Shown here: positions 558 through 56,766 of the stretch, in pieces
How positions within the stretch are numbered: position 1 is the first letter of the stretch
Layout: each line of letters starts with the position of its first letter
Virus record (IMG/VR): IMGVR_UViG_3300022181_000098
Coordinates: 1-60,299 of that record
DNA length: 60,299 nt
Source of the DNA: a virus
Lineage: Duplodnaviria; Caudoviricetes
Direction: 5' to 3' (one strand)
The notes under the pieces: generated by a model
Database searches by the model: none
The model's input: only the letters and a program-made list of their open reading frames with translations
What the model was told of the DNA's origin: nothing
Program-made: the position numbers and the translations under genes

Positions 558-1325
558 ATGCAATTGGAACTAGCGCTTATCCCGCATAAGGTAGAAAACA
601 AACTCGTCAATCAGCGTGCTGCAGATGGATACATAAATGCCACGGCGATGTGCAATGCCGTCGGCAAAAAGTTCGCGGATTACTCTCGATTGACGACCAC
701 AAGAGCTTTTCTAGTAGAACTTTCGAGGTCTATGGGAATTCCCATAGACCTCTTGGTACACACAGTATCATCGGGCTCCAATGAAAGCAGGGGTACTTGG
801 GTACACCCGGACGTGGCAATCAATCTGGGGCAATGGTGTTCTCCGAAGTTTGCAGTGGCCGTTTCTAAATGGGTTAGGGAATGGCTCACCAACACTATAG
901 CACCGACCAGTCTTCCGCCTCATATTCAGCGTTACATGATCAACCGCGCCGAGATCCCGCCCACTCATTTTTCGATGCTGAACGAGCTCACCTTCGCCCT
1001 GGTCGCTCCACTGGAGGCCGAGGGCTATGTTCTGCCCGAAAAGATGGTGCCAGACATTTCGACCGGCCGGATGTTCTCAAAGTGGCTTCGGGAGGTGAAG
1101 GAGCTCGATACTGACACTCTTCCTAGTTATCAACACCGATTCGCGGATGGAAGGGTCGTACAAGCAAGGCTCTACCCAAATCAGCTACTCGCAGATTTCA
1201 GAAGGTATTTTCACCTCGAATGGCTACCATATCACGCGGGTGAATATTTCTCAAAAAGGGATCAGAAGGCGATGCAGCACTTGCCGAAACTGCTTCCGAA
1301 CCCAAAAAGGAAGTTGGGCAGATGA
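558..1325 (+). CDS. KilA-N (APSES-like) DNA-binding domain protein
   Basis: QR-DGYINATAMC...GTWVHPDVAINLGQWCSPKFAV is the KilA-N signature; AAGGAG RBS upstream. Confidence 0.9.
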   Translation: MQLELALIPHKVENKLVNQRAADGYINATAMCNAVGKKFADYSRLTTTRAFLVELSRSMGIPIDLLVHTVSSGSNESRGTWVHPDVAINLGQWCSPKFAVAVSKWVREWLTNTIAPTSLPPHIQRYMINRAEIPPTHFSMLNELTFALVAPLEAEGYVLPEKMVPDISTGRMFSKWLREVKELDTDTLPSYQHRFADGRVVQARLYPNQLLADFRRYFHLEWLPYHAGEYFSKRDQKAMQHLPKLLPNPKRKLGR

Positions 1326-1331
1326 TTTCGT

Positions 1332-1353
1332 GGGGGTTCCTTCGGGAGCCCCC
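1332..1353. terminator. Hairpin terminator between convergent kilA-N and membrane-protein genes
   Basis: gggggttcc-ttcg-ggagccccc stem with UUCG loop just after the kilA-N stop. Confidence 0.65.
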
Positions 1354-1422
1354 ATCTCCTTCCCTCTTTGTCAATTATCGGCCGAGCTCTTGCGAGCATA
1401 AGGGGTGAGCCAAGCGGTGATC

Positions 1423-2079
1423 CTATGGCACCCGCCGCCCCGCTCGTAGGATCAAGAGCACCAGCCCGGCAAAGCTCGCCGCCAACCCGGGTATTAGGAA
1501 CCATTTCCACAGAACACTGCCGCCGCTTTGGTGGTGGTTGCTCTTAACCAAGAGTGAGTCGTAAAAATCACCCTCGCCGGTCAGTAACCTCATGATTTTG
1601 TATGTGCAGGAATACTGATGCAGCTCATTCTTCATGTCACGGTACTCCACGAGAATCTCCACTTCGTCATATTTCTCGTAACCCAATATCCTTTCCCTAG
1701 TCTTTTCAGCCTGCTCGTAGAAGAGAAGCCACGTCAGTTCCTGTTTTGGAAGAAAGACAAATTTCCTGCCCTTTTGTGTATCCTCGAGGTTGGTGGGAAT
1801 TCTCACTCTGTTTTGAACAGAGAACCATTTCCATGACACCGTTGTCTCCGTGGCAGGATAGTTCCCTGAATTCACCAGAATCGCGGCGAAGGACACGACA
1901 TCGACCTTAGCTCCCCCGGAGGGCACCGGGGTCACCTTAGGCTCGATGCCCTTAACCCCACATATTGGTTGATTCAATCTTTTCGTAAGGTCGACCTGGT
2001 ACCAGAAGTAAACCAAGTTCAAAAAGAGCACGATCGCTATGATTACTTGAATCCAGTCGCCTGCAGCCAGCTTCGACAT
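1423..2079 (-). CDS. Membrane protein (N- and C-terminal TM helices) directly downstream of the CRISPR array
   Basis: 218 aa; hydrophobic WIQVIIAIVLFLNLVYFWY and WFLIPGLAASFAGLVLLIL segments flank a beta-rich domain; ATG lies 8 nt after the GGAGG end of the last repeat. Confidence 0.8.
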   Translation of the reverse strand: MSKLAAGDWIQVIIAIVLFLNLVYFWYQVDLTKRLNQPICGVKGIEPKVTPVPSGGAKVDVVSFAAILVNSGNYPATETTVSWKWFSVQNRVRIPTNLEDTQKGRKFVFLPKQELTWLLFYEQAEKTRERILGYEKYDEVEILVEYRDMKNELHQYSCTYKIMRLLTGEGDFYDSLLVKSNHHQSGGSVLWKWFLIPGLAASFAGLVLLILRAGRRVP

Positions 2080-2087
2080 AAATTATG

Positions 2088-2647
2088 CCTCCAACCTGCA
2101 CATGCGCGCGGATTGCAACTTACCCTCGAGTTCTTAAACACTATGGTGATGGCCTCCAACCTGCACATGCGCGCGGATTGCAACACCGTTACGAATGCGA
2201 CATGGCGCGGGTTGAGAACCTCCAACCTGCACATGCGCGCGGATTGCAACCGGGAGGATGAAAAAATTTGTATTTTTTTTCTTCCTCCAACCTGCACATG
2301 CGCGCGGATTGCAACGCCTCTCTCACGCACGTTCATTCCTTCCCGGGTCCTCCAACCTGCACATGCGCGCGGATTGCAACACGGCATCAATCCGTTCCTG
2401 TGTGAGGTTCCCTTCCTCCAACCTGCACATGCGCGCGGATTGCAACGTGGCGCCGCGGGTATCATGATCATAGACGGTCACCCTCCAACCTGCACATGCG
2501 CGCGGATTGCAACCCATGATGATCGCCCAGGTGGACCCGACGGTCGTCCTCCAACCTGCACATGCGCGCGGATTGCAACGAGCGTCGCATCGAAGGTCTG
2601 CGTCCTCATGCTCATCCTCCAACCTGCACATGCGCGCGGATTGCAAC
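2088..2647 (-). CRISPR. CRISPR array: 9 identical 32-nt repeats (GTTGCAATCCGCGCGCATGTGCAGGTTGGAGG on - strand), 8 unique spacers of 33-36 nt
   Basis: Repeats start at 2088, 2153, 2219, 2284, 2349, 2415, 2482, 2548 and 2616; spacer lengths 33,34,33,33,34,35,34,36. Confidence 0.98.
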
Positions 2648-2814
2648 TGTCACGGTACAAACGGCTTGTCAAAGAACCGCTTCCTCCGCAGTTTCCGCGA
2701 ACCTAATGAAAATCAAGGCCTCACGGCCGCTGGTTGAAGGAACATCGCTTCTAGAGTTGCTCCACGCTTACATCGCGAACCTCTAAGCAATTTCCTGTTA
2801 GCTTCAGGTTCGCG
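2648..2814 (-). promoter_or_regulatory. CRISPR leader with triplicated CGCGAACCT motif
   Basis: CGCGAACCT at 2696-2704 and 2774-2782, inverted copy AGGTTCGCG at 2806-2814; TCTTTGACAA (- strand, 2666-2675) near the first repeat. Confidence 0.7.
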
Positions 2815-2995
2815 TTTATGCAGATCGTGTCCCGGACATGGCGGGACAGCTGTTCCCTTGAGGGAACTTGCGGATCCTAACCACCTGTACTTCATAACAG
2901 GCGACTGGTCCGGTTGGCCTCGCGAGCAGGCCAGCGATCGTTCTGAAACCGCCTGGGGCGGTATCGAAACAAACGCCTATGCCATACGGCATCAT
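2811..2995 (-). ncRNA. Putative tracrRNA of the Cas12f system
   Basis: About six hairpins (2829-47, 2852-67, 2882-2903, 2915-33, 2945-65, 2979-92) and 3' anti-repeat GAUCUGCAUAAACGCG (2811-2826) pairing 14/16 (three G:U) with repeat CGCGCAUGUGCAGGUU. Confidence 0.75.
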
Positions 2996-2997
2996 CT

Positions 2998-4335
2998 TCA
3001 TTGTATCGATTGCTCGATTATCTTGTCAATCCCAATAACGGATAAATTGCGTGCAGCATTTTTGTCGGCATGGTCCTCATGCTCACACGCTACACATTTG
3101 AAGTATGACTGTCCTCTCTTTGCCTTTGGCCTGTTTTCCGAATCGATATGGCCACATTCGTTGCATCTCTGCGAGGTATACTTCGGGTCAACCAATTTCA
3201 GGTCGACCCCAAGCTGTCTAGCCTGCCACTTGATAGCGTCTATCAGCATGCCAGCCGCCCAATTGCGGGCAAGCCAGGGCTTTCCTTCTTTGAGGTCGAT
3301 AAGCGACAGATTTTCCAGCTGCCACGTCCCGGCTCCATTCCTTTTGGCTTGGTCAGCGATAATTGCCGCTAGTTTCTGGCTAGCCGTTTTCATTATCCTT
3401 TGTTCCTGTTTTCTCAGCAGGCGCAGCTTCTTCGTCGCCGCGTCCCGTGACGGCCCTTGCAGGGGTGTATCCTTACGTTTGAGAGCGCGCAAGAGACGCG
3501 TTATTTCCCTTCTCACGATGCCCCTCGCGTTAATCATCGCCTTACCATTCCCTATAAGCATTGCCCATTTCTGGGCATCGCCATTATTCCGGATATGGAT
3601 GGCCGCAGGCGTGGCAAGACCCAAGTCGATACCCATAACTGTTTCTGGAGAGAGTGGCTTATAAGGGTCCGGCTCGTAGTTTATGGATAAGTGCATCAGG
3701 TATTTCCGACCGGCGCTCTTTTTGCTCCGTACAAGTTGACCCATGCCGTGTTTCCATTCACCTTCGAGGATCCGATGCAGCTGCAAATAACCCGACTGAT
3801 CTCTTTTCTTGAGATGTATCTCGAAAGCAATCCATGAGGGCAACCCTTCGCTCTTTGCCCACGAGTCAGCAAATAGGCTGTATAAGATATAGAACTTATT
3901 CCCTTCATCGATATGGAGCCTTACGGCCTCATGGTGAAAACATATAGGATGAGTGCCGTCTGATTTATGCGTCGGCAATACTGTGTCACCTCGTCCCATT
4001 AAGCGCTTGCCATGGTCACCGGCAAAATGTGCTTTTGCTAGATTGAAGGCCTGGTTTAAGACCCTACCGTTCAAATGCGTCTCCAAATCAAGCTTCTGCA
4101 AAATGGGCACATAACCGGTATTGAACCCGAGATCACCTAGGTTCACTTTCAGAATCTTACTGGTATACAAGAGATTTGTGGTAAAATTACAGAGACGAGC
4201 GAAGTCTCTGAATGACTGGAGGATCTCTTCATAGACCTTCTTCCTTTGTTCATCTTCGAGGGGAATCAGGGTTTTGGACCGTATATCGTAGCCCATAACC
4301 TTACCAAGGCCAAATGTCACCGTCTTGCTTAGCAT
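2998..4335 (-). CDS. cas12f: Miniature type V CRISPR effector, Cas12f (Cas14/C2c10-like, TnpB family)
   Basis: RuvC-I MGIDLG, RuvC-II WQLENL, Zn finger CNECGH...CVACEH, RuvC-III HADKNAARNL; ~445 aa; adjacent tracrRNA and array; no transposase. Start ATG 4335 (TTG 4341 alternative). Confidence 0.9.
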   Translation of the reverse strand: MLSKTVTFGLGKVMGYDIRSKTLIPLEDEQRKKVYEEILQSFRDFARLCNFTTNLLYTSKILKVNLGDLGFNTGYVPILQKLDLETHLNGRVLNQAFNLAKAHFAGDHGKRLMGRGDTVLPTHKSDGTHPICFHHEAVRLHIDEGNKFYILYSLFADSWAKSEGLPSWIAFEIHLKKRDQSGYLQLHRILEGEWKHGMGQLVRSKKSAGRKYLMHLSINYEPDPYKPLSPETVMGIDLGLATPAAIHIRNNGDAQKWAMLIGNGKAMINARGIVRREITRLLRALKRKDTPLQGPSRDAATKKLRLLRKQEQRIMKTASQKLAAIIADQAKRNGAGTWQLENLSLIDLKEGKPWLARNWAAGMLIDAIKWQARQLGVDLKLVDPKYTSQRCNECGHIDSENRPKAKRGQSYFKCVACEHEDHADKNAARNLSVIGIDKIIEQSIQ

Positions 4336-4379
4336 TGTCAACGCCCCAATATTCTGACATTTAAGCGGATATCCCGAAT

Positions 4380-4408
4380 ATCCTATAATTGTGATATGTA
4401 GTTGTCAA
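4380..4408 (-). promoter_or_regulatory. sigma70 promoter for cas12f
   Basis: TTGACA-17 nt-TAGGAT on - strand. Confidence 0.7.
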
Positions 4409-4471
4409 TTAATTGTTTGCAAACGCTTTCTGTTCCTAAAAATTGGTACGTGGATAATTGGTGACGTCTCG

Positions 4472-4750
4472 CTACTGAATTCTCATCCCCTCGATGCTCT
4501 GTTCCAGGCTTTTTTCCCTGTCATCCTGGAGCGCCTTGTTCTTGAGCAGGTTTTTCGCGTTCTCCGCATCCAGGCAGTAATCGCCGCCCGTCTTCTGCCA
4601 CCTGACCTGGTAGTAATCCGGCTTCGGAGGGAGATCAGGGATTACCGGCCGTACGTACTCCGTCCGGACCAGCGCCTTGTTTCCACATCCCGTTAAGCTC
4701 GTCAAGGATAGCATCACCGCTACCGCCAGCAACAGCGTTGTCCGTTTCAT
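4472..4750 (-). CDS. Outer-membrane spanin (Rz1-like lipoprotein)
   Basis: Signal peptide with LTGC lipobox, Pro-rich segment, overlaps 3' end of the i-spanin. Confidence 0.8.
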   Translation of the reverse strand: MKRTTLLLAVAVMLSLTSLTGCGNKALVRTEYVRPVIPDLPPKPDYYQVRWQKTGGDYCLDAENAKNLLKNKALQDDREKSLEQSIEGMRIQ

Positions 4751-5033
4751 TTATTACCCCCGTAGGTGTCAGGCCGTCGATATACTTCAGCCTCTTGATC
4801 GTCTGGTCCTTCGTCTCTATCCGGGCCGTGCAGGACTTGTTAAGATTTTCGGCCTCTTTCTTTAACTCAGCGATCGTTGTTAAATTCGTCGTGTTCGCAT
4901 CCTTCGCCGCCTGCAGTTCCACTTTGACCGCCTTCACTTGTTGCCCCCGTGCCCACCATACACCGGCGCCGGCGAGTATCATACCGACGAGAAGGCCTAT
5001 GACGCCGCCCTTGAGATAGTCTAAGAAGTTCAT
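4635..5033 (-). CDS. Inner-membrane spanin (Rz-like)
   Basis: N-terminal TM helix then coiled coil; follows the endolysin. Confidence 0.8.
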   Translation of the reverse strand: MNFLDYLKGGVIGLLVGMILAGAGVWWARGQQVKAVKVELQAAKDANTTNLTTIAELKKEAENLNKSCTARIETKDQTIKRLKYIDGLTPTGVINETDNAVAGGSGDAILDELNGMWKQGAGPDGVRTAGNP

Positions 5034-5629
5034 TTGTACTTCTCCCCCTTTTCAAAAATGAGGTACGGATACTCGATGTTGACCTTGCAGAAGTCAAGGA
5101 TGGAGCCACATTTCAGCTTGATCTTCTTCCTCGCGCACTGCTTCTCGATAAGGGTGATGTCGCAGGATCCGGCCCGAATGATCTCCTTATTAAGATTCCC
5201 TTGGCCGCCGTTGTACGAGCGAAAAGCGAAGTACCACCCTTCACACTTCGCGGTATCGTAAAGGTACCGATCGTAGAGGATAAGAGCCCGTATGTTCCAC
5301 CGCGGGTCATAGGGATTCATGGGGAACTCCTGGAGCGCGTTTTCTCGCCCATGGATCCACTCAGCCGTGGACGGCATGAACTGTCCAAGGCCCGCGCCGC
5401 CGTCGAAGGCCGTCGCACCCTCCCTGCACCGACTCTCCTGTTCGATTTGCCCCATGAAATAGTGATAGGGCGCATCGGCCCCGATGAACACCCTCGCCTC
5501 TCTGACTACCTGCCTCTTGTACTTCAGGCAGCGGTTGACGGTCTGCCCATCACAGTCCGAGGGTAAGACTGACAATAACAGAACCGAGAAGCAAACCACG
5601 AAAAATGAGAACCGCAATCCTGCCAACAT
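5030..5629 (-). CDS. Endolysin, SLT lytic transglycosylase with N-terminal hydrophobic segment
   Basis: QIEQES, GLGQFMPST, SYNGG motifs; probable start MLAG at 5629 after a GGAGG RBS. Confidence 0.88.
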   Translation of the reverse strand: MLAGLRFSFFVVCFSVLLLSVLPSDCDGQTVNRCLKYKRQVVREARVFIGADAPYHYFMGQIEQESRCREGATAFDGGAGLGQFMPSTAEWIHGRENALQEFPMNPYDPRWNIRALILYDRYLYDTAKCEGWYFAFRSYNGGQGNLNKEIIRAGSCDITLIEKQCARKKIKLKCGSILDFCKVNIEYPYLIFEKGEKYK

Positions 5630-6035
5630 CGGTAATCCTCCCTTCCTTTTCTTGCCGGTCGAACGTCCGCTTGTACCCGACAACCCATATCAGTTCTGCG
5701 AGGATGTAGCCCACACACACGAGACAGCACTTGTAGAACATGGCTTCGACCATGTTGGGTTTGAGAATCTGCATGAGCGCAAAGACCCCGGCAAGAGGGA
5801 CTCCAAGCCTCAAAAGGTACTTAATGACCGTACTCCCTGACACCGGGGATACCTGGATGCTGCCGGTCTTGTCCTTGACATATTCGACCCCTTCTTTTGC
5901 CTTCTCAGCCGCCTGGCCCCGGAGTTTCAGATAGACCTTGTTGAACCACTCCGCGAGCTTGGGATTGCGGACCGCGAAGAGTATCCCGACCAAAAAGAAA
6001 ACGATTGCTACGAAGATGTGTGTGAACCAGAGCAT
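5550..6035 (-). CDS. Putative holin
   Basis: Several TM helices; directly upstream of the endolysin. Confidence 0.65.
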   Translation of the reverse strand: MLWFTHIFVAIVFFLVGILFAVRNPKLAEWFNKVYLKLRGQAAEKAKEGVEYVKDKTGSIQVSPVSGSTVIKYLLRLGVPLAGVFALMQILKPNMVEAMFYKCCLVCVGYILAELIWVVGYKRTFDRQEKEGRITDVGRIAVLIFRGLLLGSVIVSLTLGL

Positions 6036-6216
6036 ATTAGCCCTCCTTTCTTGTGTCGATGTGCTTCAACAGGCACTTGCCGACCGTCTTCAGGAACCCG
6101 CACAGCTGCACGTTGTAACCCCTGGCGATGATATATAGGAATTCCAGACGTTCCGGCAAATCGGCCTTCTCCCAATCCCTGATCAGATTCTTGGTTTTAA
6201 CCTTCGCCCCATCGCG

Positions 6217-7189: not shown

Positions 7190-10100
7190 TTACTGCAATT
7201 GCTGAAACCTCCTGCGCTCCGACTTCTTTGGCTTCTCCATGTTCCTGCCCTGATCCTTCAGATTCGAGTACTTCATGAAGGGCACTATCCCCGCAAGGCC
7301 AGCATCACGGATGGACTGATTGTACTCAGCTTGCTTCTTCATCAGCCTGGTCAGGGCGTTCGAATCGCGGTTCGGATCCGAGAAGTACGCTCTCGCCTCT
7401 TCGTATATGCCATTCCTTGTTTCCGTGAACCCTCTGACAACCTCGTCATGTTCCCGTTTGCGTTCCGTCATCACCGCCTGTTCGCTCGGCCGGAAACCCG
7501 CAGCTCTCAGACCTGCCTGCCCCGTGCTCAGTTTCAGGTGTCTGCCTGTCTGGTCGTTGAACAGGGGCCTGCCCTTCTCTGAGGTCACGCCCCGTGTATT
7601 CTCCCGCACGGCCCGGACAGGGTTTGCCAATCCGGTCGGGAGGACTTTTTCAACAGCCCTCGCCGGCTGACCGGTCATGAGATAGTGCAGGCTCTTCTCT
7701 GCGTCGTCGTAGATTCCCCCTACCGCCCCGGTGAGTTCCCACATGCTCTTCGGAACGCCGACGCCGATCGACAACGAGCCCGATATGTCTATCCCTGCCA
7801 GACCGGTGAGGCCGTGCCTCGCAACCAGCTCTGCCCTCTTACCAAGGTGCTGGCGAACGGAGTCGTAAACGTACTTCTCGGCGTCACCTTTCTTGAACCC
7901 GAAGAGCTTCAGGAAGAAGTTGATAATGCCCACCATGAGGTCTTTCAGCGGCCAGGCTGCACCGCCAGCCAGAACGATCGGAGAGGCAAAACCAAACAGG
8001 AAGGCCTTTACGTCGTGTTTCTTGAAACCGAGGTCATACATCATCTGCAGGTAGTTGTGGCTGAACTTTCCGTAGACGTACATGAGCTGCCCAACCTTGG
8101 CGGCCGGATTCCCTCCCTGGGCCCAAGACGGAAGGGTCGACCTTCCGTAGAGGCCATGAGCCTTGTTCGAGGCATCCAGGGCGAGATTGTAGGCTTCTTC
8201 CTCATTCTTGCCTGAGGCCCTGGCCAGTCGGTACCCGGCAAGCATGGTGCTCATCCTGTTCCACTGCTCTGTTTTGCCGAACATCCACATGGAGACAGTC
8301 ATCGCCTTTGACCAGAGGCGGCGGTGGATCTTGTCTATGCTGCCCATGGCGTCCCGGGTGAGCTGCGGATCGTCGTAACCTTCCCGCTGAATTCGATCGA
8401 TGAACGCCTGCTCGTCGGCATCCTTGAGCTTGCGTCCGGCCATGACCGTCGCAATATCGGCACCCGCTTGGCCCACTGCCGTCAGGATCCTTGTCATGCT
8501 GCCCTTTCCGCCCATGACATACTGATGGATGGCCGCCGGCGCCGTCGTCACCATGGCCGTCATATTGACCAGCATCGACCTGGGATTGAACCCGAGATAC
8601 TTGAAGGTCGCTATGCTCTTGGCCACGCCGACAATCCTGTCGGTGTGATCCAGGTTCCGGAGTTGCTCGGCAATATACCGCTCGGCCGTGACGTAGGCCC
8701 TGCTCTCCGCCCTGGGGTCGATACCTCCCTCCAGCTGGCCCTTCTCGTTCCTCTGACCCAAGAGCTGCTCCATGGCACGGTGTGCAACCTGTGCCTTGGA
8801 AAACCCGCCGGCCAGATTGTTCACGTACGTCGCAAACCTCTCGAGGGGATCCTCCATGTAGCCCCTGACGACACCCATCTCCTCCGGGGATCCGCGGTGG
8901 ATCATCGAGGAGCGGAAGCCGCGGGACTTGATCATGTTGGAGACCTGTTCGATTAGCTCATCATTGAACGTCACGGCGGCCTCCCCCTTCAGGCCGGCAG
9001 ATGCGTCCTTGATGGCGCGCGCCACATCCACTGCCTTAAGGTTCTGGTAAACGGACTCCGGAAGTTTTGATATCTCGGTGACCCCGACGTCCGTCCAGCC
9101 TTCCTTTCTGAGCCTGTCGGCCAGGCGCTCCGCCGCGTACTTGTTCCTGTGTTCGCGGTACCGTTCTGTCTTGCCTCCGACCACCTTCTCCGCCTGCACC
9201 GCCCAGCTGGCGCGCTCCCTGAGCCGTGGAGCGTAAAAGCCGCGCCACTCCTGCATGGATGCCAGGGCGAACCGGAGTTCTTTCAGGGTAGTCTTGGTCT
9301 GTGCGCTGAGTTCGCCCTCTTCCATCTGGGCGACGAGGGCTCGGAGCTGTGAAGTCATCATGTCGAGAGCCTTGTCGTAGCTGGCACGGTGGAGCTTCCA
9401 CACCCTGATGGCCTCGTCGGATACCCCTCTCTTCTCCCGGAGATAGGTTTCGTACTTCTTCACCTGGTTCGCCACGACAGCCGCCCGTGCCTCTTCTGAT
9501 ATGTCCGGATCCCTCAGGCGCTCCATGCTGGCGTCGCCGCGCTTCCATTTCGTGTCGCCGTAGTCGATGGCAAAGAGAAGCTCTCGGTAGGCCTGTGGGT
9601 TCTCCTTCCTGAGTCTGTCCGTCTCCTCAATGACTGATTCCCCGTCCACGGTGACCAGATCCACCAGGGTCGTGTGGTAAAGGCGCTCACGGTCCATGGT
9701 GAAGAGGCGGACGATGTTCTTGAAAACAGGGTGCGAGTACCACTCCGGACTCTTCAGAACGTTCTCAAGGAAAGAGTTGTGGGGCATCCTCCCGGGCATC
9801 ACCGTCGCTATTGTTCGAAAGATCGCCGCCGTCTCGCGGTTCAGCCAGCTCCCCGTCTTCTTGTCGCTGTCATCTTTCGGATCCGGGATCTCCTTCGTCG
9901 GTTCCCCGAGGGGCTCAGTGCTCCTGTTGTTGCGATCGATGGCGCCGAAAACACCCTGGAGCTTTCTTGCCAGTTCTGGATTCTTGCTGGAGAGGTTGAT
10001 CAGGAAGGGGTCCGGTTCCGGTGATGCTTCCCTTCGGAAAGAGATATCCTTCCGCCCTTTCTTGACATTCCGCAGTTCCTCTGCTACCTTTTCTCTAAGG

Positions 10101-13100
10101 GAGGCAACCACTTCTGACAGGCTACCGGATGTCAGTTGTGCGTAGTCTCTGGGGTTGTAAGATTCCCCTTTGACACCCTCCTCTTTCTTTTTGAACCCCG
10201 TCAGAAGCCACGTTTCCTTCTTCGTGAATCTCGACTTCGACAGAATGGCAACATAGTCACCGTACTCTATATCGGCCCGGCCGATCTCACCGCCGTATTC
10301 CCGGGTCTTCGTCCCCAGGGCCACCGCCTTGATGACTCCGACGAGGTCCCCGGCGATATCGTCAGAACCTTCGAATGCCCTCTGGGCGACGATGTGAAGA
10401 AGGCCGCCTTCATCCTTCTCTTTTCCTCCGTAATACAAGGTGACGTCACCGAGATCGGGATTCCTGAGGGCTGCCGGCATATCCTTCTTGCCCTCCATGG
10501 CGGACAGCAGAGCATTCAGGCCCCTCTCTTCTTCTTCGATCTTGTGAAGGTCGTTCGATGATTCCTTGCGGAAAGATATACCTCCCCCAATCGACGGGCC
10601 TTCACCGAATTTCGGCTTGACAATGTCGGCTTCTGAGTGTATTTTGTATTTAAGGTTCTTGATGGTCTCCTCCAGGGGCAATTGTAGCCTGGCGGATGTG
10701 GACCATCTAAGAGCCTTTTCTTTGTCCATGTAGACAAGATTGCCTGCCTTGATCTGATCAATAAACCACTCCGGTTTTCCTGTCAGCGCATTATTCTCGC
10801 GGCCGTATATGCTCGTTATCTTGTTAACGTGAGCTCCAATGGTACCTACAGGAAAATTGAGTTTCACCGGAACTATGACCCACCTGCCTTGATTGTCCTG
10901 GGCCTCCGTCATCACGACGAAGCTGTCGGGTTCGGTTGCTGACTTAAGAACCATTATCGGGGCAGTGAGTGCTATCGGGAGCTGTTCGATGAGGTCTCTG
11001 GTAAGGCTGTGTCTGGGGCCGATGGCTTTTGTGAGGGTATCTGCAGTAATAGCCATGGGCAGGTCTTTCATTCCTATACGGTGGAGGCGCAACACCTGGG
11101 GTGTATTCATCATGACAGGAAGGTACTGACCCTTTAGGGTATGGTTGAAATAGTCGGACAGGACACCCTTCCATCTTTTCATTTCCTCGGTGATCCGTTT
11201 GCCTATTCTCAGGGCTGTCTGATCTGGACCGGTGGACATGTCCTTCTTAAAGCTGACCTGCCCATCTCCATCGCTTCTTTTCAACCCCTTCGCGCCTTCC
11301 GAATACTCCCACCCCTTCCGGATCAGATTCTTGATATCCGTATCCGTCCACTTCAGGCGGAAGTTGAGCCGTCTCAGGGCGTCCCGGATGACTCCGATGA
11401 TCCTCTGCATGACCGTGGGCTTTTCCCCGGACTCCGCCATGTGGGCTATGAGTTCACGCCCGGCGACGTACCTGTGGACCCTGTCGGCAAGGTCAAGGTC
11501 GTAGTCTTTCACGATCCTGTTCAGCCGGTCCGTGCCCTCGTACGCATCGACGGCCGCCTGCATGACCTTGACTTGCTCGTCCTCGTTGAGCACAGCCTCG
11601 ACTCCCCTGTGTCCGATGACCTCGTGAATGAGGATGGCATGGGCGTTGCGAATGTCCTTGACGGAGTCGGCGACGATGTAGGTGGTGTCCGTGGTCCGGT
11701 CGTAGGCTCCGTACACGGTATCCTGATCGGAAAGCTCGTAGGCGTCGACCCCGGGGATCTCAGCGACAGACTGGACGACCTTCACCTCGCCGATGTTCTT
11801 GAGCTTCCTGAGGAGGGGTTCGAGAAAGCCCTCGACCTTCTCGACGGTGTGTCTGGGACGAGCGGCGGGTTCAATGACGGAGGAGGAGTCGGACTGACGG
11901 GTGAAAGAGATCCGGTCGTCTTCGGGGTTCCATGTGCCACGGTTGTAGACGGATTTGATCTGGGTAGGGGAGAATGCAATATACGAGTCTCCTGGACCTT
12001 CTGCCGTCGTATTGCTGTAGACTATTCCGTCGTAGCCTTTTCGGCGGATCGCATCTTCCCAATCCTGCAAAGTTCCGCCACTCAGTCGCTCCAGTTCCGC
12101 TCTGTCGAAGATATCGGGCGGATTGACTACGCCCATTATGTCAGGGCGGATGAAACCGGTATCATGCATCCTGAGGGGATTTCTTATGTTGAGATAGACG
12201 GGGATTGTATTACCGCCCGGTCCCCACTCATCTGCTATAACGTTTGCCTGCTGCCTGGTTCCAAAATGGGACCACGGCCTGAATGACTCAAAGGCACTCG
12301 ATGTTCCATGATACACCACCAACGGTTCCCCGTTTTCATCCACGACCCTGGAGGGTACATATTTAAGATCTTCCTTCTTGAAAGCGGTCAGGAGGTGCGC
12401 TATACTTACCTTAGAGCTTGCTGCAGGCCGACTACCCAACGTCTCATTTTGAGAAGCGGTACCGGAGATACCGGCAAGCTCTTCGACTTTCAAGGCCTCG
12501 TGATCGTAAAACTTCTTCCCCATATCAACATATTCCTTGACCGTCAGTTTTACGGCGAACATTTGCCCGTCGATACGTAGAGGCGCGACAAAGGTATGCA
12601 CATACGGAATGTCGGGATTGGGAGGCCTGTGCTCATTCGTGGCGATCTTGTCCGCCCTCCTGATGAGGTCCACCATCGCGGGCACAGAATAGACCTGTTC
12701 CTTGCCTTTGTGTTGAAAACCGTGTTTTACCTGCTTAGGTTTCAACTGAATATCAAACCCGGTCCTCTCATTCAGGATGATATCCGTGTCGAGGCCATCG
12801 ATGAGCCTTTTCAGGTATTCCGTAGCGTTTTTACGTGCTTCCTTGGGATTGGTCCCCGATATCTCGTTGCCTGCGAGTTCCGTCACTTCGATGTCGGGAT
12901 GGGCGACGACCTCCCAGTCCCCAAACCACCGCTTGAATTCCGGGGTCCTGGTTTGTGCCTCTCGTGCTCTTTCCTTTTTGAATAACAGTACACCTCTGTC
13001 CGTCTCCTTTGATTCGATAGTGCTGAACAGGTTGTCGAAGGCCTCTGCCACAGGAACTATTTCTTCAGGCAACAGATATGGGTATCTTTCCTCACTGCGC

Positions 13101-16100
13101 GGGAAATTCTCTACATCTCGCACGTTAGCCAAATAGTCGTTATGGTATCCACCCTGCATCATCTTATTGATGACGTAGTTCTCAAAAGCACGGGCGGCCC
13201 GTTCAAGAATACGGCTCCAGTAACCTGATTGTGCCTTATCAATAAGGCGTGAGCGTTCTGCCATGGGCGACGCATCCAGCGTTGCGACCAGTTCTGCAAA
13301 CACCTTTTCCACTTCAGGGCGGACGCCTTGAGGGTGTTTAGGGTCTTTTTGCCAGTTGTCGGGATTGAGATATTCGGACGTAGGGTGATCCCTGTGAAGC
13401 TGTTCAAGACGGGCTTTTGCGGTCGGTGTGCTTCTCTCGGTCTTATGAACATAGAGGGGTTCAGGATGGTATGTAATAAAGTTCTTTGCCCGGTACGCCT
13501 CATCGGCACCGAATCCCCGTTTGACCTTCACTTCGCCGCTACGCATACGGGAAAAGTAATTGTCGAGGGCATGAAACCATTCGTGCGCGAGACTCCCGGC
13601 GCCCCGGGGCTTTGTCAGATTGATGACAAGCCTGTCGGGCTCAAAGTGTGCCGAGGCCCATCCGCTGCCCCGTGAACCGAAAGCAAGACCGAGAGACCCG
13701 TTAAGGGATATGGCTTTCGGCTGGATACCGATAATCTCAGCAAGGTCCATCAGCGCATCATAAGCCTGATTTAGCATACCTTGCCGCTCTTTGCTCCCAG
13801 TCCCCTGGCCGACCCAGTTCCCAAACTCTACACCGCGGAAGCCAAAGGTGTCGCCGAATTGTTCGGGTGTAACGTCCTTTCCGCCACGCCGATCGACCGC
13901 TGTCCGAGGGCGGTTTGTCTCTGCCCGCACATCGGTCTCTTTTACGTTGTCCTTCTCCTTAACCGCTTCCCAGGCGGCCACGAGGTCATTGTAGTTCTCC
14001 TTCATATATGCCCTGGCATCTTTGATGTCAGAGAAGGTCTTGAGTTTCCGGTATTCCCTGTCCCCCTTCTTGTTGATGAAATACTCACCGCTCCTGGGAA
14101 TTGTCCGGATCTCAAACCGCATCTTCTTTTCGGACGCGGGACCGGCCAGCAGGTCTTCTACCCCGGGCAGTGCATCGGCTATCTTCCTTGCACCTCTGAA
14201 CTCATGCCATCTCCCGTCAATTTCAACACGGGTGAAGGGACTTTCGACCTTCTTGCCTTCTTTGTCGTAGTAATATGCCTTTGGAAACGCCTCCACGTGC
14301 CCGATACGCTGCCACTGGTCACGATCGATGGATGCGAGCAGCTCAACCTTGTCTCCGAAGGAATTCAATATAGGGCGTCCCCGTAATCTCCGCATGAGTT
14401 CTTTGGGGTCAATCTCAACGTCCAAAATCTCCTTTGCCAGAGTCCGCATGGATTTAACCTTCTCCACCCATGCCTTCACTTTGTAGCCCACGCGTGGTTT
14501 CGCGGGTATTACACTCCGGGCCGCATATGCCCATGCAGCGGGGAATTTATCGTCTATGGCATTTATCTCATCGGCAGGCCATATCTTGTTGAGGGGTTGT
14601 GTGGCTATATCGTCATCGGTAAGGTCCCTTGACAGCGACGGGGCCTGATCCTTCCTTGCCCCCCCTATCTTCTCGCCGAAGTCTTCGATCCTGCCGGGTT
14701 CGGTAGAGGTTTTTTCTTTCTTCCCCTCCTCCTCATGTTCCCTCTTCGCCTTCTCCCCTGATAACCTCTCTTTCAGCTCGTCGACGTCCTGCTTCTCCAC
14801 GTCGAACATACGCTCGCCCTTCTTCTCGGCAACCTTCATCGTCTTCTGTTCATGGGGTTGGTTGCCGGACAGGGAAAACATGCCGGAGGTGTCGAACAAT
14901 TCCCCGCCAGTTTCTTCTCCCTGGGGGGCCTGTGCTCGTTTCTCGTCTTCGGCAGGGGTAAGGGCCGTCCCTTCTTCCGAGGGTTCAGCAGGACGCAATT
15001 CGTAGGGTGTTTCGGTGGGTTCTTCTACTTCTGAGACGAAGACGTCGTCGTCGCGGGTTTCATCTCCACGAGCTCGTGCCTCTTCAGCATCCCGATCAGT
15101 TTCTTCAGGCCGAGTATCTTCTCGTGTCGCGTCTTGATACGATCTAACAACATCTTCGATTTGGGACTCATCTGCACCATGGCGCTCTAAATCCTCCCTC
15201 AGTTCAAGTATATCATCCTTTTGCTCGGTAATAGCAACATTAAGTTCGCTCTGCATCTGATTGACCGTGGTCTTCTGCCCCCTGGCCGCCGCCTGGAGGA
15301 GTGACAGCACGTAGTTGTCGCTCGGTATGGTGTCGGGACCGGGCAGGATATCTCCCTTGCTCACAAGCTCCGTCGCGATATCGTCGAGGCTCCGACCGTT
15401 CTTCCGGAAGATGAAGGAAAGGCCGTGCTGCTGGAAATCCTCCTTCACGTTGAAGCCAGCCGCCTTGACCTTCGCAGCCGACAATCCCCCCATGTCGATG
15501 ACGACCCTGATGAGGGATTTCGCTGGTTTCGTCTTGATGGGTTCCGAGGCTTTCCTATCAACGGCCGCTTCCTCCTGTGGCTGCTGCCCCATCGGGAAGA
15601 AGCCCGGCTCGATGCCTTCCTGCGGTTTGACGAGGCGAGCCCCCCACAGACGCTCATGCGTCGGGAAGATAGGGTACAGGCCACCGCCCCGTTCGTTCGT
15701 GAAGTCCTCGACGAGAGGGATGACGTCTCCCTGGGGGGTGACATATGCCCTGTTCACCCTGAACCGCGCCGTATGGGGGCCCCGGACCGGGTGTGCCTTG
15801 ATATCGAATTCGTAGAAGTCGCCTGGCTCGGGGATCCCTGACGACTCCACCTGTTCCTCGGGAACCGTTCTTTTCAGTCTGGCTTTCTTCAGCCATGCCT
15901 TGAAACCGTCCATCGACATGGGCACCATATTCCCGAGGCCTTTCCATCCCGGCTCGTAGTTGGCAAGGTAGCCGGCTCGTGCTTCCTCGATGTTGTCATA
16001 TCCGACCATGGCCTTGTGCTCGTCGAACCTCCCGGTCTTCGGGTCCACCTGGTCGACCACGAACACTCGCTGACTCGTCGGGTTGTCGCCGATGAAGACG

Positions 16101-18493
16101 TCCACGTGGTCGCCATCAGCTCCTTCAGTGCGCCGGATATACCCGTAGTGTGCTTTGAGTTTGCTTTTCCATTCTTTTCCGTCCTTGGATACTCCTCTGC
16201 GGACCGATCCCTTGGGATTCTCGATGCTGATATCCAAGCCCTGGATGGAGACGTGGCCCTTCTTGTAGTTGCCCGCCTCGATCTGCGCCCGCGTGGGTTC
16301 AGGAAGGTCATTCTCAGGAGAAGAAGCTGCCTCGCCCGCAGCCTCGTCGACGTCCTCCTTCGTGACTCCACCTTCGAAGCTGGCTTGGGGGTACCTGAAA
16401 GCGATGTCATGTCTGTTTGCGGGGATGACACCGCCGGCACTGATATGCGCGTCGAGAAGAAGAGGTGTGATGCCCTGCGCCTTGTCGTCGTCCTGAGACA
16501 AGGACTTATAGATGGCCCTGGCCGCGGTAACGTCACCGGGCTGCTCGAAGGCGACTGCCGATGGCGTCCGCATGTCCTCGGCGGTGTATGAGACAGGGGC
16601 CCGCTCTCCCGGCAGGGGTATGGGCTCACCACCGAGGCGACGGGCCGGTGCGGTCGCCGCAGTCTCTTGGGGCGCTGCCGGGGCGACATCCGTGCGGGGT
16701 CGGGGCATCCCGGGCCGTCTCGTGACCCCGGCCACGGATCTCCGCTCTTCCTGCGGGAACTGTGCAAAGAGCATCTCCGCCCGGTCGAGGTCGCTGAGGT
16801 TCTTCACGACCCGGCCGCCGGTGCCGCCCTCGATGCCGCGCATCTTTCCGACTATCAGGTCGTAGATGGGATCCGTTGCGACAAATGGGGCCTCCAGGGC
16901 CTTGTTCACCGTGTCCATGCCGTCCTTCACGCCCGGAGGGAGGTCCAGCTTCACAATGAGGTCGTTGAGCCCTGTGACGAGGGCATGCTCGGCGCCGTAT
17001 GACTCGACCATCGACGGGAGAACGGCGTCCTTCAGTTCCTCCTTCGTTACCGTGCCGGCGTCGACGGCCTCCTTGATCTTGTCCAGGGTTGGCCTGTAGA
17101 CCTCAGCGTCTTCGGCAACGGGAGGAACCTCTGCGTCCGGTTGGGTTTTGGCCGGCGGTGCGCTGAAGTCCGTCATGTCGAATTTGCCGCTCCCCGTGAG
17201 CAGGGACATATCCACGGGCCGGTTGGCCCCGATCGCCGCGGTCGCCTGCTCACCCCACGCCCTGGCGAGCTCGGGATCCGTCTCAGCGATAAAGTCCTCG
17301 AGGTGCCTGGCTATGTTCGCCCTGTGCTCGATCATCCTGACAGCCGCTGGGTGCTGGTAGTCGACAGGATTGAGAAGAATCCCCTGCTGCGCCTTCTGCT
17401 GTGCCTGGACGTCTTCGTACTGCTTGCTTGCCACTGCCCCGCCCGTGCCGCCCATGACGTGGCCGCCGATCATGCCCTGCAGGCCGGCGTTGATGGCATC
17501 GCGTAGCGCTTCCTTCGTCCAGACGGACTTGGGATTTCCGCCGTAGTTCTCGAGGTAGGTCTGGACAAACTCCTCGGCGCCCTCTTCCAATCCCGTGACC
17601 CCCATACCCTGGAGAACCCGTGGAACCAGGTTCTTCTTCGAGAACTCTCTGGCAGCCGGACCCATTCTGCCCATTCTGGCAGCCAGGGCCTCCACACCAA
17701 GACCTCGCTCGATGAGGGTCGCCGGCACGGCCGTCGCTATGAGCCGGGTTAAGGACAGGTCGGCACCATTCTTTTCCTGCTCCTCGAGCTGCTTATTCGC
17801 TATCTCGCCGCCCTCCATGAGACCTATCGGTACATCCATCGTATGAGGCTTCAGGAAATTGAGAACACGCCCGCCCAGACCCCGTTTCACGACCTCCTTT
17901 CCGACCACCCCGGCAACTTCGGCCGGCTTATAGATGCCCGGAGCGAGCGCCGTGATGGCGAGGGACCCGGCCAGGTTGCCAACGCCGGTACTCGCATAGT
18001 CGATTCCATCAGCTATGGACTTGATGTCGGTGTAGGAATCGACCCTGGGCCTCAGGATCGGATCGTTCGCAGCCTCTCCCCAATACTCGCGTGCTGCTTT
18101 CCCACCGGTTTTTGCGAACTGAGTCAAAGGGTCAGTGGCGGGGACGGGGGTTCTCGTAGCCGGTCCGGTGAATTGTCCCGCATGTTCTCCGAGAATGGAG
18201 TCGGCGTCCAGATCCGGCCGACTGACGACCTCGCCCGGGTATCTCTCGGCCATGTGCCCCGTGTACTGCATAAGGCCTCCAAGGCCGGAGAGCGTATTCT
18301 GCACGGTTCTCGCAAATCCCTTAGCAACCTCCTTGCCCATCCTGAGCGGGGAGCCTGGCGTCATTTCGTCATACAGGCTGTCCTCATAACTCTTCCCTCC
18401 GAGGCGCCTTGAGGGCCCGAAGATGCCGAGGTCGTCTTTCATACCACCCGTCGAATCAGGTTCAAAAATGCCCAGGTCGTCTTTCATTGGCAT
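7190..18493 (-). CDS. Giant polyvalent protein (probable virion-ejected protein): InPase, LPD5-, LPD1-, LPD3-like, ART, zincin, MuF-C-like, PBECR-like domains
   Basis: AGNYKKGH..GADGDHVDVF (InPase); IEDFGEKIGGARKD; FGFRGVEFGNW..HEWFHALD; TPEFKRWFGDW..VVDENGEPLVVYHGT..GYDG..FSPTQIKS (ART); HEVIGH; ITSIYGR; GLLHI..WLLTGF. Confidence 0.88.
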   Translation of the reverse strand: MPMKDDLGIFEPDSTGGMKDDLGIFGPSRRLGGKSYEDSLYDEMTPGSPLRMGKEVAKGFARTVQNTLSGLGGLMQYTGHMAERYPGEVVSRPDLDADSILGEHAGQFTGPATRTPVPATDPLTQFAKTGGKAAREYWGEAANDPILRPRVDSYTDIKSIADGIDYASTGVGNLAGSLAITALAPGIYKPAEVAGVVGKEVVKRGLGGRVLNFLKPHTMDVPIGLMEGGEIANKQLEEQEKNGADLSLTRLIATAVPATLIERGLGVEALAARMGRMGPAAREFSKKNLVPRVLQGMGVTGLEEGAEEFVQTYLENYGGNPKSVWTKEALRDAINAGLQGMIGGHVMGGTGGAVASKQYEDVQAQQKAQQGILLNPVDYQHPAAVRMIEHRANIARHLEDFIAETDPELARAWGEQATAAIGANRPVDMSLLTGSGKFDMTDFSAPPAKTQPDAEVPPVAEDAEVYRPTLDKIKEAVDAGTVTKEELKDAVLPSMVESYGAEHALVTGLNDLIVKLDLPPGVKDGMDTVNKALEAPFVATDPIYDLIVGKMRGIEGGTGGRVVKNLSDLDRAEMLFAQFPQEERRSVAGVTRRPGMPRPRTDVAPAAPQETAATAPARRLGGEPIPLPGERAPVSYTAEDMRTPSAVAFEQPGDVTAARAIYKSLSQDDDKAQGITPLLLDAHISAGGVIPANRHDIAFRYPQASFEGGVTKEDVDEAAGEAASSPENDLPEPTRAQIEAGNYKKGHVSIQGLDISIENPKGSVRRGVSKDGKEWKSKLKAHYGYIRRTEGADGDHVDVFIGDNPTSQRVFVVDQVDPKTGRFDEHKAMVGYDNIEEARAGYLANYEPGWKGLGNMVPMSMDGFKAWLKKARLKRTVPEEQVESSGIPEPGDFYEFDIKAHPVRGPHTARFRVNRAYVTPQGDVIPLVEDFTNERGGGLYPIFPTHERLWGARLVKPQEGIEPGFFPMGQQPQEEAAVDRKASEPIKTKPAKSLIRVVIDMGGLSAAKVKAAGFNVKEDFQQHGLSFIFRKNGRSLDDIATELVSKGDILPGPDTIPSDNYVLSLLQAAARGQKTTVNQMQSELNVAITEQKDDILELREDLERHGADESQIEDVVRSYQDATREDTRPEETDRDAEEARARGDETRDDDVFVSEVEEPTETPYELRPAEPSEEGTALTPAEDEKRAQAPQGEETGGELFDTSGMFSLSGNQPHEQKTMKVAEKKGERMFDVEKQDVDELKERLSGEKAKREHEEEGKKEKTSTEPGRIEDFGEKIGGARKDQAPSLSRDLTDDDIATQPLNKIWPADEINAIDDKFPAAWAYAARSVIPAKPRVGYKVKAWVEKVKSMRTLAKEILDVEIDPKELMRRLRGRPILNSFGDKVELLASIDRDQWQRIGHVEAFPKAYYYDKEGKKVESPFTRVEIDGRWHEFRGARKIADALPGVEDLLAGPASEKKMRFEIRTIPRSGEYFINKKGDREYRKLKTFSDIKDARAYMKENYNDLVAAWEAVKEKDNVKETDVRAETNRPRTAVDRRGGKDVTPEQFGDTFGFRGVEFGNWVGQGTGSKERQGMLNQAYDALMDLAEIIGIQPKAISLNGSLGLAFGSRGSGWASAHFEPDRLVINLTKPRGAGSLAHEWFHALDNYFSRMRSGEVKVKRGFGADEAYRAKNFITYHPEPLYVHKTERSTPTAKARLEQLHRDHPTSEYLNPDNWQKDPKHPQGVRPEVEKVFAELVATLDASPMAERSRLIDKAQSGYWSRILERAARAFENYVINKMMQGGYHNDYLANVRDVENFPRSEERYPYLLPEEIVPVAEAFDNLFSTIESKETDRGVLLFKKERAREAQTRTPEFKRWFGDWEVVAHPDIEVTELAGNEISGTNPKEARKNATEYLKRLIDGLDTDIILNERTGFDIQLKPKQVKHGFQHKGKEQVYSVPAMVDLIRRADKIATNEHRPPNPDIPYVHTFVAPLRIDGQMFAVKLTVKEYVDMGKKFYDHEALKVEELAGISGTASQNETLGSRPAASSKVSIAHLLTAFKKEDLKYVPSRVVDENGEPLVVYHGTSSAFESFRPWSHFGTRQQANVIADEWGPGGNTIPVYLNIRNPLRMHDTGFIRPDIMGVVNPPDIFDRAELERLSGGTLQDWEDAIRRKGYDGIVYSNTTAEGPGDSYIAFSPTQIKSVYNRGTWNPEDDRISFTRQSDSSSVIEPAARPRHTVEKVEGFLEPLLRKLKNIGEVKVVQSVAEIPGVDAYELSDQDTVYGAYDRTTDTTYIVADSVKDIRNAHAILIHEVIGHRGVEAVLNEDEQVKVMQAAVDAYEGTDRLNRIVKDYDLDLADRVHRYVAGRELIAHMAESGEKPTVMQRIIGVIRDALRRLNFRLKWTDTDIKNLIRKGWEYSEGAKGLKRSDGDGQVSFKKDMSTGPDQTALRIGKRITEEMKRWKGVLSDYFNHTLKGQYLPVMMNTPQVLRLHRIGMKDLPMAITADTLTKAIGPRHSLTRDLIEQLPIALTAPIMVLKSATEPDSFVVMTEAQDNQGRWVIVPVKLNFPVGTIGAHVNKITSIYGRENNALTGKPEWFIDQIKAGNLVYMDKEKALRWSTSARLQLPLEETIKNLKYKIHSEADIVKPKFGEGPSIGGGISFRKESSNDLHKIEEEERGLNALLSAMEGKKDMPAALRNPDLGDVTLYYGGKEKDEGGLLHIVAQRAFEGSDDIAGDLVGVIKAVALGTKTREYGGEIGRADIEYGDYVAILSKSRFTKKETWLLTGFKKKEEGVKGESYNPRDYAQLTSGSLSEVVASLREKVAEELRNVKKGRKDISFRREASPEPDPFLINLSSKNPELARKLQGVFGAIDRNNRSTEPLGEPTKEIPDPKDDSDKKTGSWLNRETAAIFRTIATVMPGRMPHNSFLENVLKSPEWYSHPVFKNIVRLFTMDRERLYHTTLVDLVTVDGESVIEETDRLRKENPQAYRELLFAIDYGDTKWKRGDASMERLRDPDISEEARAAVVANQVKKYETYLREKRGVSDEAIRVWKLHRASYDKALDMMTSQLRALVAQMEEGELSAQTKTTLKELRFALASMQEWRGFYAPRLRERASWAVQAEKVVGGKTERYREHRNKYAAERLADRLRKEGWTDVGVTEISKLPESVYQNLKAVDVARAIKDASAGLKGEAAVTFNDELIEQVSNMIKSRGFRSSMIHRGSPEEMGVVRGYMEDPLERFATYVNNLAGGFSKAQVAHRAMEQLLGQRNEKGQLEGGIDPRAESRAYVTAERYIAEQLRNLDHTDRIVGVAKSIATFKYLGFNPRSMLVNMTAMVTTAPAAIHQYVMGGKGSMTRILTAVGQAGADIATVMAGRKLKDADEQAFIDRIQREGYDDPQLTRDAMGSIDKIHRRLWSKAMTVSMWMFGKTEQWNRMSTMLAGYRLARASGKNEEEAYNLALDASNKAHGLYGRSTLPSWAQGGNPAAKVGQLMYVYGKFSHNYLQMMYDLGFKKHDVKAFLFGFASPIVLAGGAAWPLKDLMVGIINFFLKLFGFKKGDAEKYVYDSVRQHLGKRAELVARHGLTGLAGIDISGSLSIGVGVPKSMWELTGAVGGIYDDAEKSLHYLMTGQPARAVEKVLPTGLANPVRAVRENTRGVTSEKGRPLFNDQTGRHLKLSTGQAGLRAAGFRPSEQAVMTERKREHDEVVRGFTETRNGIYEEARAYFSDPNRDSNALTRLMKKQAEYNQSIRDAGLAGIVPFMKYSNLKDQGRNMEKPKKSERRRFQQLQ

Positions 18494-56764: not shown

Positions 56765-56766
56765 GC

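Follow-up and report, generated by a model that had tools for sequence, protein, structure and literature searches.

The primary papers on phage-encoded type V systems of CRISPR-Cas (short palindromic repeats, clustered and regularly interspaced, with their associated proteins) are reportedly those of Al-Shayeb from 2020 and 2022. The locus described here, a small cas12f gene with a scaffold RNA and a CRISPR array of its own, lies in 60,299 bases of viral DNA (positions 1–60,299 of the IMG/VR provirus record IMGVR_UViG_3300022181_000098), a stretch that we refer to as the window. Phage-encoded type V effectors with arrays and without adaptation genes, including members of the Cas14/Cas12f clade and V-F1/V-U3-like forms, are described in passages of PMC12607003, bioRxiv 10.64898/2026.09.14.751636 and PMC11748809. 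For AsCas12f, the published passages on its single-guide RNA describe six stems, two of them being repeat:anti-repeat segments, and those on the protein give a protospacer-adjacent motif (PAM) of 5'-NTTR and a D225A mutant as the nuclease-dead form.

AsCas12f1 of Acidibacillus sulfuroxidans (422 aa; PDB 7WJU, 8DZJ, 8J12) is the best match to the window protein by sequence, profile and fold, and shares with it the size class, the RuvC and zinc-ribbon residues and a long multi-stem scaffold with repeat:anti-repeat pairing, whereas identity is only about 25–26% (Foldseek alignment), no relationship is apparent between the two in repeat or scaffold sequence and the window locus is phage-borne. The V-U3/V-F1 (c2c10-like) loci on Bacillus plasmids resemble it in that Cas12u3 is the top PADLOC model of the window protein, but differ by low identity, other hosts and another type of replicon. 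In a tblastn search against plasmids, those of Bacillus thuringiensis, B. cereus and B. anthracis matched at 27–28% identity over 79% of the protein, and we take these loci to be V-U3 loci without adaptation genes. CasPhi (Cas12j), Cas-lambda, Cas14j/k and the virus-borne V-F1/V-U3-like systems likewise combine a single small effector and an array in a phage that brings no spacer-acquisition genes. CasPhi, however, uses a CRISPR RNA (crRNA) only and has some 700–800 aa, whereas the 445-aa effector of the window is predicted to depend on a trans-activating CRISPR RNA (tracrRNA) and resides in a temperate phage of about 60 kb, not in a huge phage; Cas14j/k were compared by description only. The pairs of TnpB and omega RNA (ISDra2, ISFba1) share the RuvC and zinc-ribbon core fold and a guide scaffold at or after the 3' end of the gene, but the window guide would come from a multi-spacer array via a separate anti-repeat pairing, TnpA is lacking and sequence similarity is very low. 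No relative above 35% identity was found by tblastn among deposited phage genomes, and none above 32% among plasmids. A natural prophage-borne Cas12f is not described among the literature matches listed, which does not show that there is none. Earlier publications thus already cover this kind of system, including its likely role and the absence of adaptation genes, while the protein clade is uncharacterised.

The cas12f cassette and its effector

We interpret the locus, with a probability of roughly 0.85, as a CRISPR-Cas module of type V-F, complete in itself and of the Cas12f1/V-U3 kind, that forms an accessory cassette of a temperate tailed phage. The cassette is real and probably functional, and its main parts are as follows.

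2080–4471, minus strand: whole cassette, delimited by comparison with the sibling phage contig L058
2998–4335, minus strand: cas12f, 445 aa from the ATG at 4335, or 447 aa from an in-frame TTG at 4341
2770–2934, minus strand: core of the scaffold RNA, from covariation and a covariance model
2819–2827, minus strand: anti-repeat (CGATCTGCA), directly after scaffold stem D, pairing with repeat positions 20–28 (TGCAGGTTG)
2088–2647, minus strand: CRISPR array of nine repeats (GTTGCAATCCGCGCGCATGTGCAGGTTGGAGG) and eight spacers

A preliminary description of this DNA had claimed a nuclease of about 445 aa with a D/E/D RuvC triad and a zinc finger, a tracrRNA, and nine perfect repeats with eight different spacers, all next to the lysis cassette and with no cas1, cas2, cas4 or tnpA, and these claims hold up. 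The array contains nine exact copies of a 32-nt repeat (plus-strand sequence CCTCCAACCTGCACATGCGCGCGGATTGCAAC) that start at 2088, 2153, 2219, 2284, 2349, 2415, 2482, 2548 and 2616 with a spacing of 65–68 nt, and a reversed-pattern control gave 0 matches. The eight spacers are 33–36 nt long and each different, with a GC content of 0.27–0.65. This is the sole CRISPR-like array in the window, and it begins 350 nt downstream of the cas12f gene. We read it on the minus strand because of the covariation of the anti-repeat, the downstream position of the arrays of relatives on the gene strand, and the array of one related locus (L017), whose final, distal repeat is degenerate. Separately, the AT-rich spacer at 2251–2283 (GC 0.27) resembles, on its plus strand, a ribosome-binding site followed by an ATG and the start of a Lys/Phe-rich gene, and may stem from the beginning of a gene in an element of higher AT content.

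Profiles of Cas1, Cas2, Cas4 and Y1 TnpA had 0 matches in the provirus record, and as a positive control the same searches gave matches in 7, 6, 8 and 6 of 14 control genomes, respectively. The SLT endolysin lies at 5030–5683, so that lysis genes adjoin the cassette, and its homologues (61–82% identical) occur in eight IMG/VR contigs. The viral contig L058 preserves the order endolysin (72%), orf4635 (80%), orf4472 (80–86%) and orf1423 (57%), but only about 140 nt separate its orf4472 and orf1423 homologues where the window has the cassette of about 2.4 kb. Within phage synteny the cassette is therefore a separate insertion or deletion, and it does not belong to host flank. Together, the phage gene set of the record, this difference from a sibling phage and the zero matches to cas1, cas2 and cas4 place the locus among virus-encoded CRISPR-Cas systems without an adaptation module.

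The open reading frame (ORF) of cas12f is full length and has no stops, and the 445 aa counted from the ATG equal the length of the database copy P0001. Its RuvC residues D237, E341 and D424 and zinc cysteines C391, C394, C414 and C417 (445-aa numbering) align with the AsCas12f motifs IDLG, E and NADxNAARN and CxxC...CxxC. E341, D424 and the four cysteines do not vary among 31 family members, at least 90% of which also have D237, and from these residues the protein is predicted to be catalytically competent. Pfam Cas12f1-like_TNB (PF07282) matched at 1.8e-17 (63.7 bits, cut-off 26.3), while the match to the OrfB_IS605 RuvC family stayed below threshold, and PADLOC ranked Cas12u3 (2e-58) ahead of Cas12f (6.5e-56), both over nearly the full length. 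The NCBIfam model for Cas12f2 (NF049972) reached 89.1 bits against a cut-off of 450, so the protein is not a Cas12f2, and those for IS607_TnpB (32.5 bits, cut-off 350) and IS200_TnpB (30.2 bits, cut-off 425) also fell short.

A single-sequence search against solved structures returned AsCas12f entries as the five best matches (3e-37 to 1.5e-34, query residues 89–446), the first 85 or so residues having no sequence match to AsCas12f. A family profile built from the 31 members and searched against the same kind of entries scored AsCas12f at 1.2e-51 (179 bits), SpCas12f1 (9I8Y) at 7.7e-43, OsCas12f (9NZQ) at 8.8e-39, Un1Cas12f at 2e-28, CnCas12f1 (8HR5) at 7.6e-28 and RhCas12f (9NZP) at 7.7e-26, compared with 0.009 (17.9 bits) for ISDra2 TnpB. 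The identities of the solved entries were taken from Foldseek titles and from passages of two papers (7WJU as AsCas12f1; 9NZO–9NZT as Al3Cas12f, OsCas12f and RhCas12f). An AlphaFold2 model computed on the family alignment had a mean pLDDT (predicted local distance difference test) of 88.9. Foldseek ranks 1–23 for this model were all Cas12f chains (AsCas12f 8.9e-32), and the first TnpB chains followed at 1.6e-13 (8iaz) and 4.8e-13 (8h1j), while BFVD returned only TnpB/Fanzor-like “transposases” at no more than 18% identity. Cas12f is thus nearer than TnpB or other Cas12 types by both profile and fold scores, and the protein is a Cas12f of the AsCas12f/V-U3 group.

A word-indexed protein search yielded 94 proteins, about 76 of which are 41–81% identical over nearly the full length; the relatives are all metagenomic and are named “transposase”, “hypothetical” or not at all. 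Twelve loci with close relatives (41–64% identical protein) were compared, i.e. L009 and L010 from IMG/VR, L013–L020 from metagenome-assembled genomes (MAGs; labelled Sumerlaeota, Kiritimatiellae, Pirellulales, Sedimentisphaerales and “delta proteobacterium”) and the metagenome contigs L042 and L043. At ten of them, similar 32-nt repeats of the type GTYGCAAC...GGTTGGAGG, with a period of 65–68, form an array downstream on the gene strand (2, 3–4, 5, 5, at least 6 up to a contig end, 12, 13, 14, 42 and 64 repeats), and L010 and L013 show none. No Cas1, Cas2 or Cas4 was found among the flanking ORFs (83 + 18, at least 90 aa, overlap-filtered), where a short cas2 could be missed. Within the clade, an effector that stands alone with its array is thus the norm. 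Four of the five MAGs tested do have Cas1 at other sites, beside arrays of unrelated, type I-looking repeats. Moreover, a tree of 30 proteins placed the three virus-borne copies in three separately supported clades and united them in 0% of bootstrap trees, which suggests that phages and chromosomes exchanged the module more than once, in a tree where the genomic context of most other rows is not established.

The scaffold RNA between gene and array

Between the cas12f gene and the array lie 350 nt that are conserved even where the proteins of the loci share just 44–64% identity. They contain the following elements in addition to the core and anti-repeat given above.

2979–2992, minus strand: small hairpin (YCCGWATGGR type) at the stop codon of the gene, probably the first scaffold stem
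2915–2932, minus strand: scaffold stem A
2907–2911 with 2872–2877, minus strand: scaffold stem B
2852–2867, minus strand: scaffold stem C
2828–2848, minus strand: scaffold stem D
2806–2814 with 2774–2782, minus strand: scaffold stem E
2705–2769, minus strand: variable region, with repeat-complementary segments at 2756–2767 and 2729–2742 and a GC hairpin with a T-run at 2705–2728
2648–2704, minus strand: leader, with the second copy of AGGTTCGCG at 2696–2704

Of the 44 pairs that RNAalifold predicted, 27 show compensatory changes. In the cleaned six-helix structure 92.9% of cells were paired, compared with 80.3% in shuffles (0 of 500 reached the observed value) and 29–47% when the partners were slid by 1–3 columns, and 26 of 43 pairs had changed on both sides versus 13.6 in shuffles (again 0 of 500). 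The anti-repeat helix follows the same pattern, with seven of its nine pairs changing on both sides across 11 loci, and in a cross-locus test the own repeat of a locus ranked first or second of 10 as partner of its anti-repeat at all ten loci (0 of 5000 permutations equal). This covariation of anti-repeat and repeat establishes that the array is read on the minus strand and demonstrates a pairing of the tracrRNA type, which leaves the last four repeat bases free ahead of the spacer.

A covariance model of the core (170 positions) scored 139.6 bits in the window and 74.8 bits (5e-23) in the viral locus L009, which had not been used for training. It found no scaffold in L010 or in eight sibling-phage loci, and none on the gene strand of 14 distant TnpB-like loci, where two weak opposite-strand matches had E-values of 0.009 and 0.07; Rfam families did not match anywhere in 1900–4600. 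Reading by eye, we found the hairpin at the stop codon in the window and in all but one (L010) of the 12 related loci. It follows the stop in the window and five loci and lies within the last codons in six, so it is kept independently of the reading frame, and its position means that the scaffold begins where the omega RNAs of TnpB begin.

Support for the variable region is weaker: the duplex energy is lower with the cognate repeat (permutation p of about 0.006), but the cognate repeat came first in only four of ten loci, and the two strands could not be told apart by RNAduplex when it was applied to the entire intergenic region. The segment 2729–2742, picked by eye, was considered as an anti-repeat and rejected in favour of 2819–2827, which has better support and an overlapping repeat partner, so that the former is left with partial support only. 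The AGGTTCGCG motif of the leader is readable, by eye, in nine of 11 aligned loci. Its two copies in the window (2696–2704 and 2774–2782) are about 78 nt apart and both complementary to 2806–2814, with 84.4% of cells pairing for the leader copy versus 86.7% for the first copy, and could represent an alternative pairing or a leader signal. As read by eye from the alignment, both copies share the same variant letters in L017 and L015.

Expression, proposed function and competing readings

One search of public sequencing runs found nine that contain the locus, six of them metatranscriptomic, and two RNA and two DNA runs were compared over 1300–6200. The RNA runs X4 and X5 have different study codes and the same year and label, and may stem from one campaign.

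2615–2977, strand not given: cover by RNA-library contigs, spanning scaffold RNA, leader and first repeat
4380–4408 (read from 4408 to 4380), minus strand: sigma-70-like pattern TTGACA-17-TAGGAT with 10 of 12 hexamer matches, some 45 nt upstream of where cas12f starts
3000–3029 (read from 3029 to 3000), minus strand: promoter-like pattern TTGACA-18-TACAAT in the last cas12f codons, with 11 of 12 matches

Contigs of both RNA libraries cover this part without differing letters (record 13 of X4 at 2615–2977, record 16 of X5 at 2618–2969) and run into Illumina-adapter letters beyond 2977 and 2969, respectively; weaker contigs lie over orf1423. Out of 30 bins across 1300–6200, contigs covered 6 in X4 and 10 in X5, compared with 28 in the DNA run X1, and this sparse cover argues against plain carry-over of DNA. 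The data hint at transcription of scaffold, leader and first repeat. Over the cas12f ORF there is no contig from the RNA libraries, which likewise speaks against DNA carry-over, but contig gaps say nothing on the expression of this gene. The hexamers of the pattern in the last cas12f codons recur in the same place in locus L018, and this pattern would start the scaffold RNA near 2992.

By analogy with AsCas12f, two Cas12f copies would bind one duplex of scaffold and crRNA, and the complex would find a PAM-flanked DNA match to a 33–36-nt spacer and cut both strands with a single RuvC site. In the lysogen, and perhaps also during infection, this would destroy competing phages or plasmids, as proposed from published phage-borne CRISPR systems, and we infer from the same analogy that the module would be a weapon against such competitors. 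New spacers, if any, would have to come from adaptation proteins supplied in trans. A more tentative proposal goes further in two respects at once and is unlikely as a whole, namely that scaffold and array form one transcript from a promoter in the last cas12f codons, the first unit folding in cis like an omega RNA and later units acting in trans, and that spacers are added in trans by foreign type I machinery. The latter may occur because chromosomal relatives reach 42 and 64 repeats without nearby adaptation genes and because the Cas1 loci of these genomes have unrelated repeats. The one-transcript arrangement, if true, would be an extant intermediate in the division of one RNA into tracrRNA and crRNA.

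Several observations weigh against the interpretation as a functional Cas12f module. The spacer searches that the preliminary description had suggested for deriving a PAM were unsuccessful: no protospacer, and hence no PAM, was found in phages, plasmids, five MAGs and ten viral records, IMG/VR and metagenomes not being part of the search. The single match in INPHARED (50,697 phage records; 37 nt at 84%, E 0.6) is not credible, and PLSDB (72,556 plasmids) gave none. The five MAGs carrying relatives returned array-to-array repeat matches and matches of at most 23 nt with E 0.19 or worse, and the best match in the ten viral records, which include sibling phages, had 23 nt at 87% (E 0.04) and spanned a repeat/spacer border. 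This lack of spacer targets is weak evidence. The array may be static, given the absence of adaptation genes and the nine identical repeats. Further, no curated Cas12f model was passed, the umbrella model guided_TnpB being the sole NCBIfam model above its cut-off (125.3 bits versus 100), and the Foldseek template modelling scores are moderate (0.43–0.61 by query), as is expected for a two-lobed protein modelled without RNA. The RNA-library contigs attest presence only and give neither strand, ends, processing nor a single transcript. Finally, the promoter of the preliminary description exists as a TTGACA-17-TAGGAT pattern but does not count as evidence, with two promoter-like sites in the region versus 2.2 expected by shuffling.

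The alternative that retains most weight, although it is improbable, is a functional module aimed at the host or at the phage's own control (host defence loci or lysogeny control) instead of rival elements. No spacer target was found, and according to passages of the literature (bioRxiv 10.64898/2026.09.14.751636) the roles of virus-encoded CRISPR systems await characterisation, but no spacer matches the provirus itself or the five MAGs with relatives (none of which is the host), and the broad range of spacer GC content is as expected of mixed foreign sources. Slightly less probable still is a binding-only or decaying module, i.e. array-programmed silencing or regulation without cutting, or an inactive relic. 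The lack of adaptation genes and of known targets would fit this explanation, but the RuvC triad and the four zinc cysteines are intact and conserved in the family, the ORF is uninterrupted, the repeats are perfect, and the scaffold RNA is structurally constrained and present in RNA libraries.

It is highly improbable that the cassette belongs to the host chromosome and that the provirus boundary was drawn too wide. The cassette does lie near the left end (at 2–4.5 kb) of a provirus record whose limits were set by computation, and ten of the 13 family loci (the window counted) are chromosomal, but its flanking genes (the lysis genes and the orf1423 homologue) adjoin each other in the independent viral contig L058, and a KilA-N/BstA-like gene typical of prophages lies further left. 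Close to refuted is an IS200/IS605-type TnpB with a cis-acting omega RNA, a transposon passenger instead of a CRISPR effector, for which the passing guided_TnpB model, the “transposase” names in PHROGs and databases and the omega-like start of the scaffold at the 3' end of the gene could be cited, but which is contradicted by nine repeats with eight different spacers in place of a single fixed guide, the absence of Y1 TnpA from the record, arrays of 2–64 repeats in ten of 12 relatives, the tenfold bit scores of the family profile for AsCas12f over ISDra2 TnpB and the low scores of the IS607 and IS200 TnpB models. A phage-borne Cas12f module thus remains our preferred interpretation. The further idea of an evolutionary intermediate on the way from TnpB to Cas12 gains no support beyond what applies to every Cas12f, as the protein lies well inside the Cas12f1/V-U3 group and has a fully split scaffold RNA and array.

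Carrier phage, related loci and implications

The IMG/VR record comprises the provirus portion only (CheckV 81% complete) and does not include the host genome. Its gene set is that of a temperate tailed phage, with small and large terminase, P22-like portal, SU10-type adaptor, major capsid protein, SLT endolysin, genes for replication, ParB, a protein resembling recombination directionality factors and, at the right end, a tyrosine integrase. The immediate neighbours of the cassette to the left are the following.

1423–2079, minus strand: orf1423, 218 aa, next to the array
558–1325, plus strand: KilA-N domain protein matching the BstA abortive-infection family (PHROG 6287, 4.9e-58; PADLOC BstA, 2.1e-18)

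Searches of domains, PHROGs, PADLOC and Atlas gave no family or named match for orf1423. At the end of the last CRISPR repeat stands GGAGG, which is 8 nt ahead of the orf1423 ATG (region 2079–2119) and would serve as the ribosome-binding site of that gene; the sequence upstream of the orf1423 homologue differs in the sibling phage. With the BstA-like gene, there may be two defence-type modules within 4 kb of this prophage arm. Further inside, a polyvalent virion-type protein of 3767 aa (7190–18493, minus strand) carries inorganic pyrophosphatase, ADP-ribosyltransferase, MuF-C and LPD1/3/5 domains, and its region has a DarB-like antirestriction PHROG match. The plus-strand regions 49811–53498 and 53516–60299 encode an SbcCD-like nuclease pair, a Gp3-like recombination directionality factor, a ParB-like protein, an HNH endonuclease, DUF5131 and the tyrosine integrase. 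The stop codon of the integrase ends at the final base of the record, so the right provirus boundary is a gene-call boundary and not an attachment site.

Individual related loci depart from the arrangement in the window. The viral L009 (5472–5800) has a shortened scaffold (118 nt versus about 165) that meets a partial repeat 41 nt before a three-repeat array, perhaps a more compact, single-guide-like arrangement. L013 (9372–9700) retains the scaffold RNA (123.6 bits), but the roughly 1 kb of downstream sequence up to the contig end shows no array, while the gene of the viral L010 (41% identity) is followed by neither scaffold nor array. The largest arrays, those of L020 (7965–13000, 64 repeats) and L018 (7920–12500, 42 repeats), adjoin truncated or frame-broken effector genes: the effector match of L020 spans residues 362–445 only, and that of L018, a locus that may contain assembly errors, is split into three ORFs. 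L020 also contains exact duplicated repeat-spacer units.

The cassette opens no new question, but it is a well-documented, complete Cas12f module of 2.4 kb that moved as a unit into a temperate, medium-sized phage and comes with a defined scaffold RNA and a hint of expression. The clade to which it belongs (about 75 metagenomic sequences) has so far been annotated as “transposase” or left unnamed, and the window protein passes no curated type-specific model of Cas12f or IS-TnpB among those matched; in size, the members of the clade equal the smallest genome editors known. For the biology of the phage, the pairing of a CRISPR cassette with another defence-like gene (BstA-like) in the arm expressed during lysogeny fits a protection of the host provided by its prophage.

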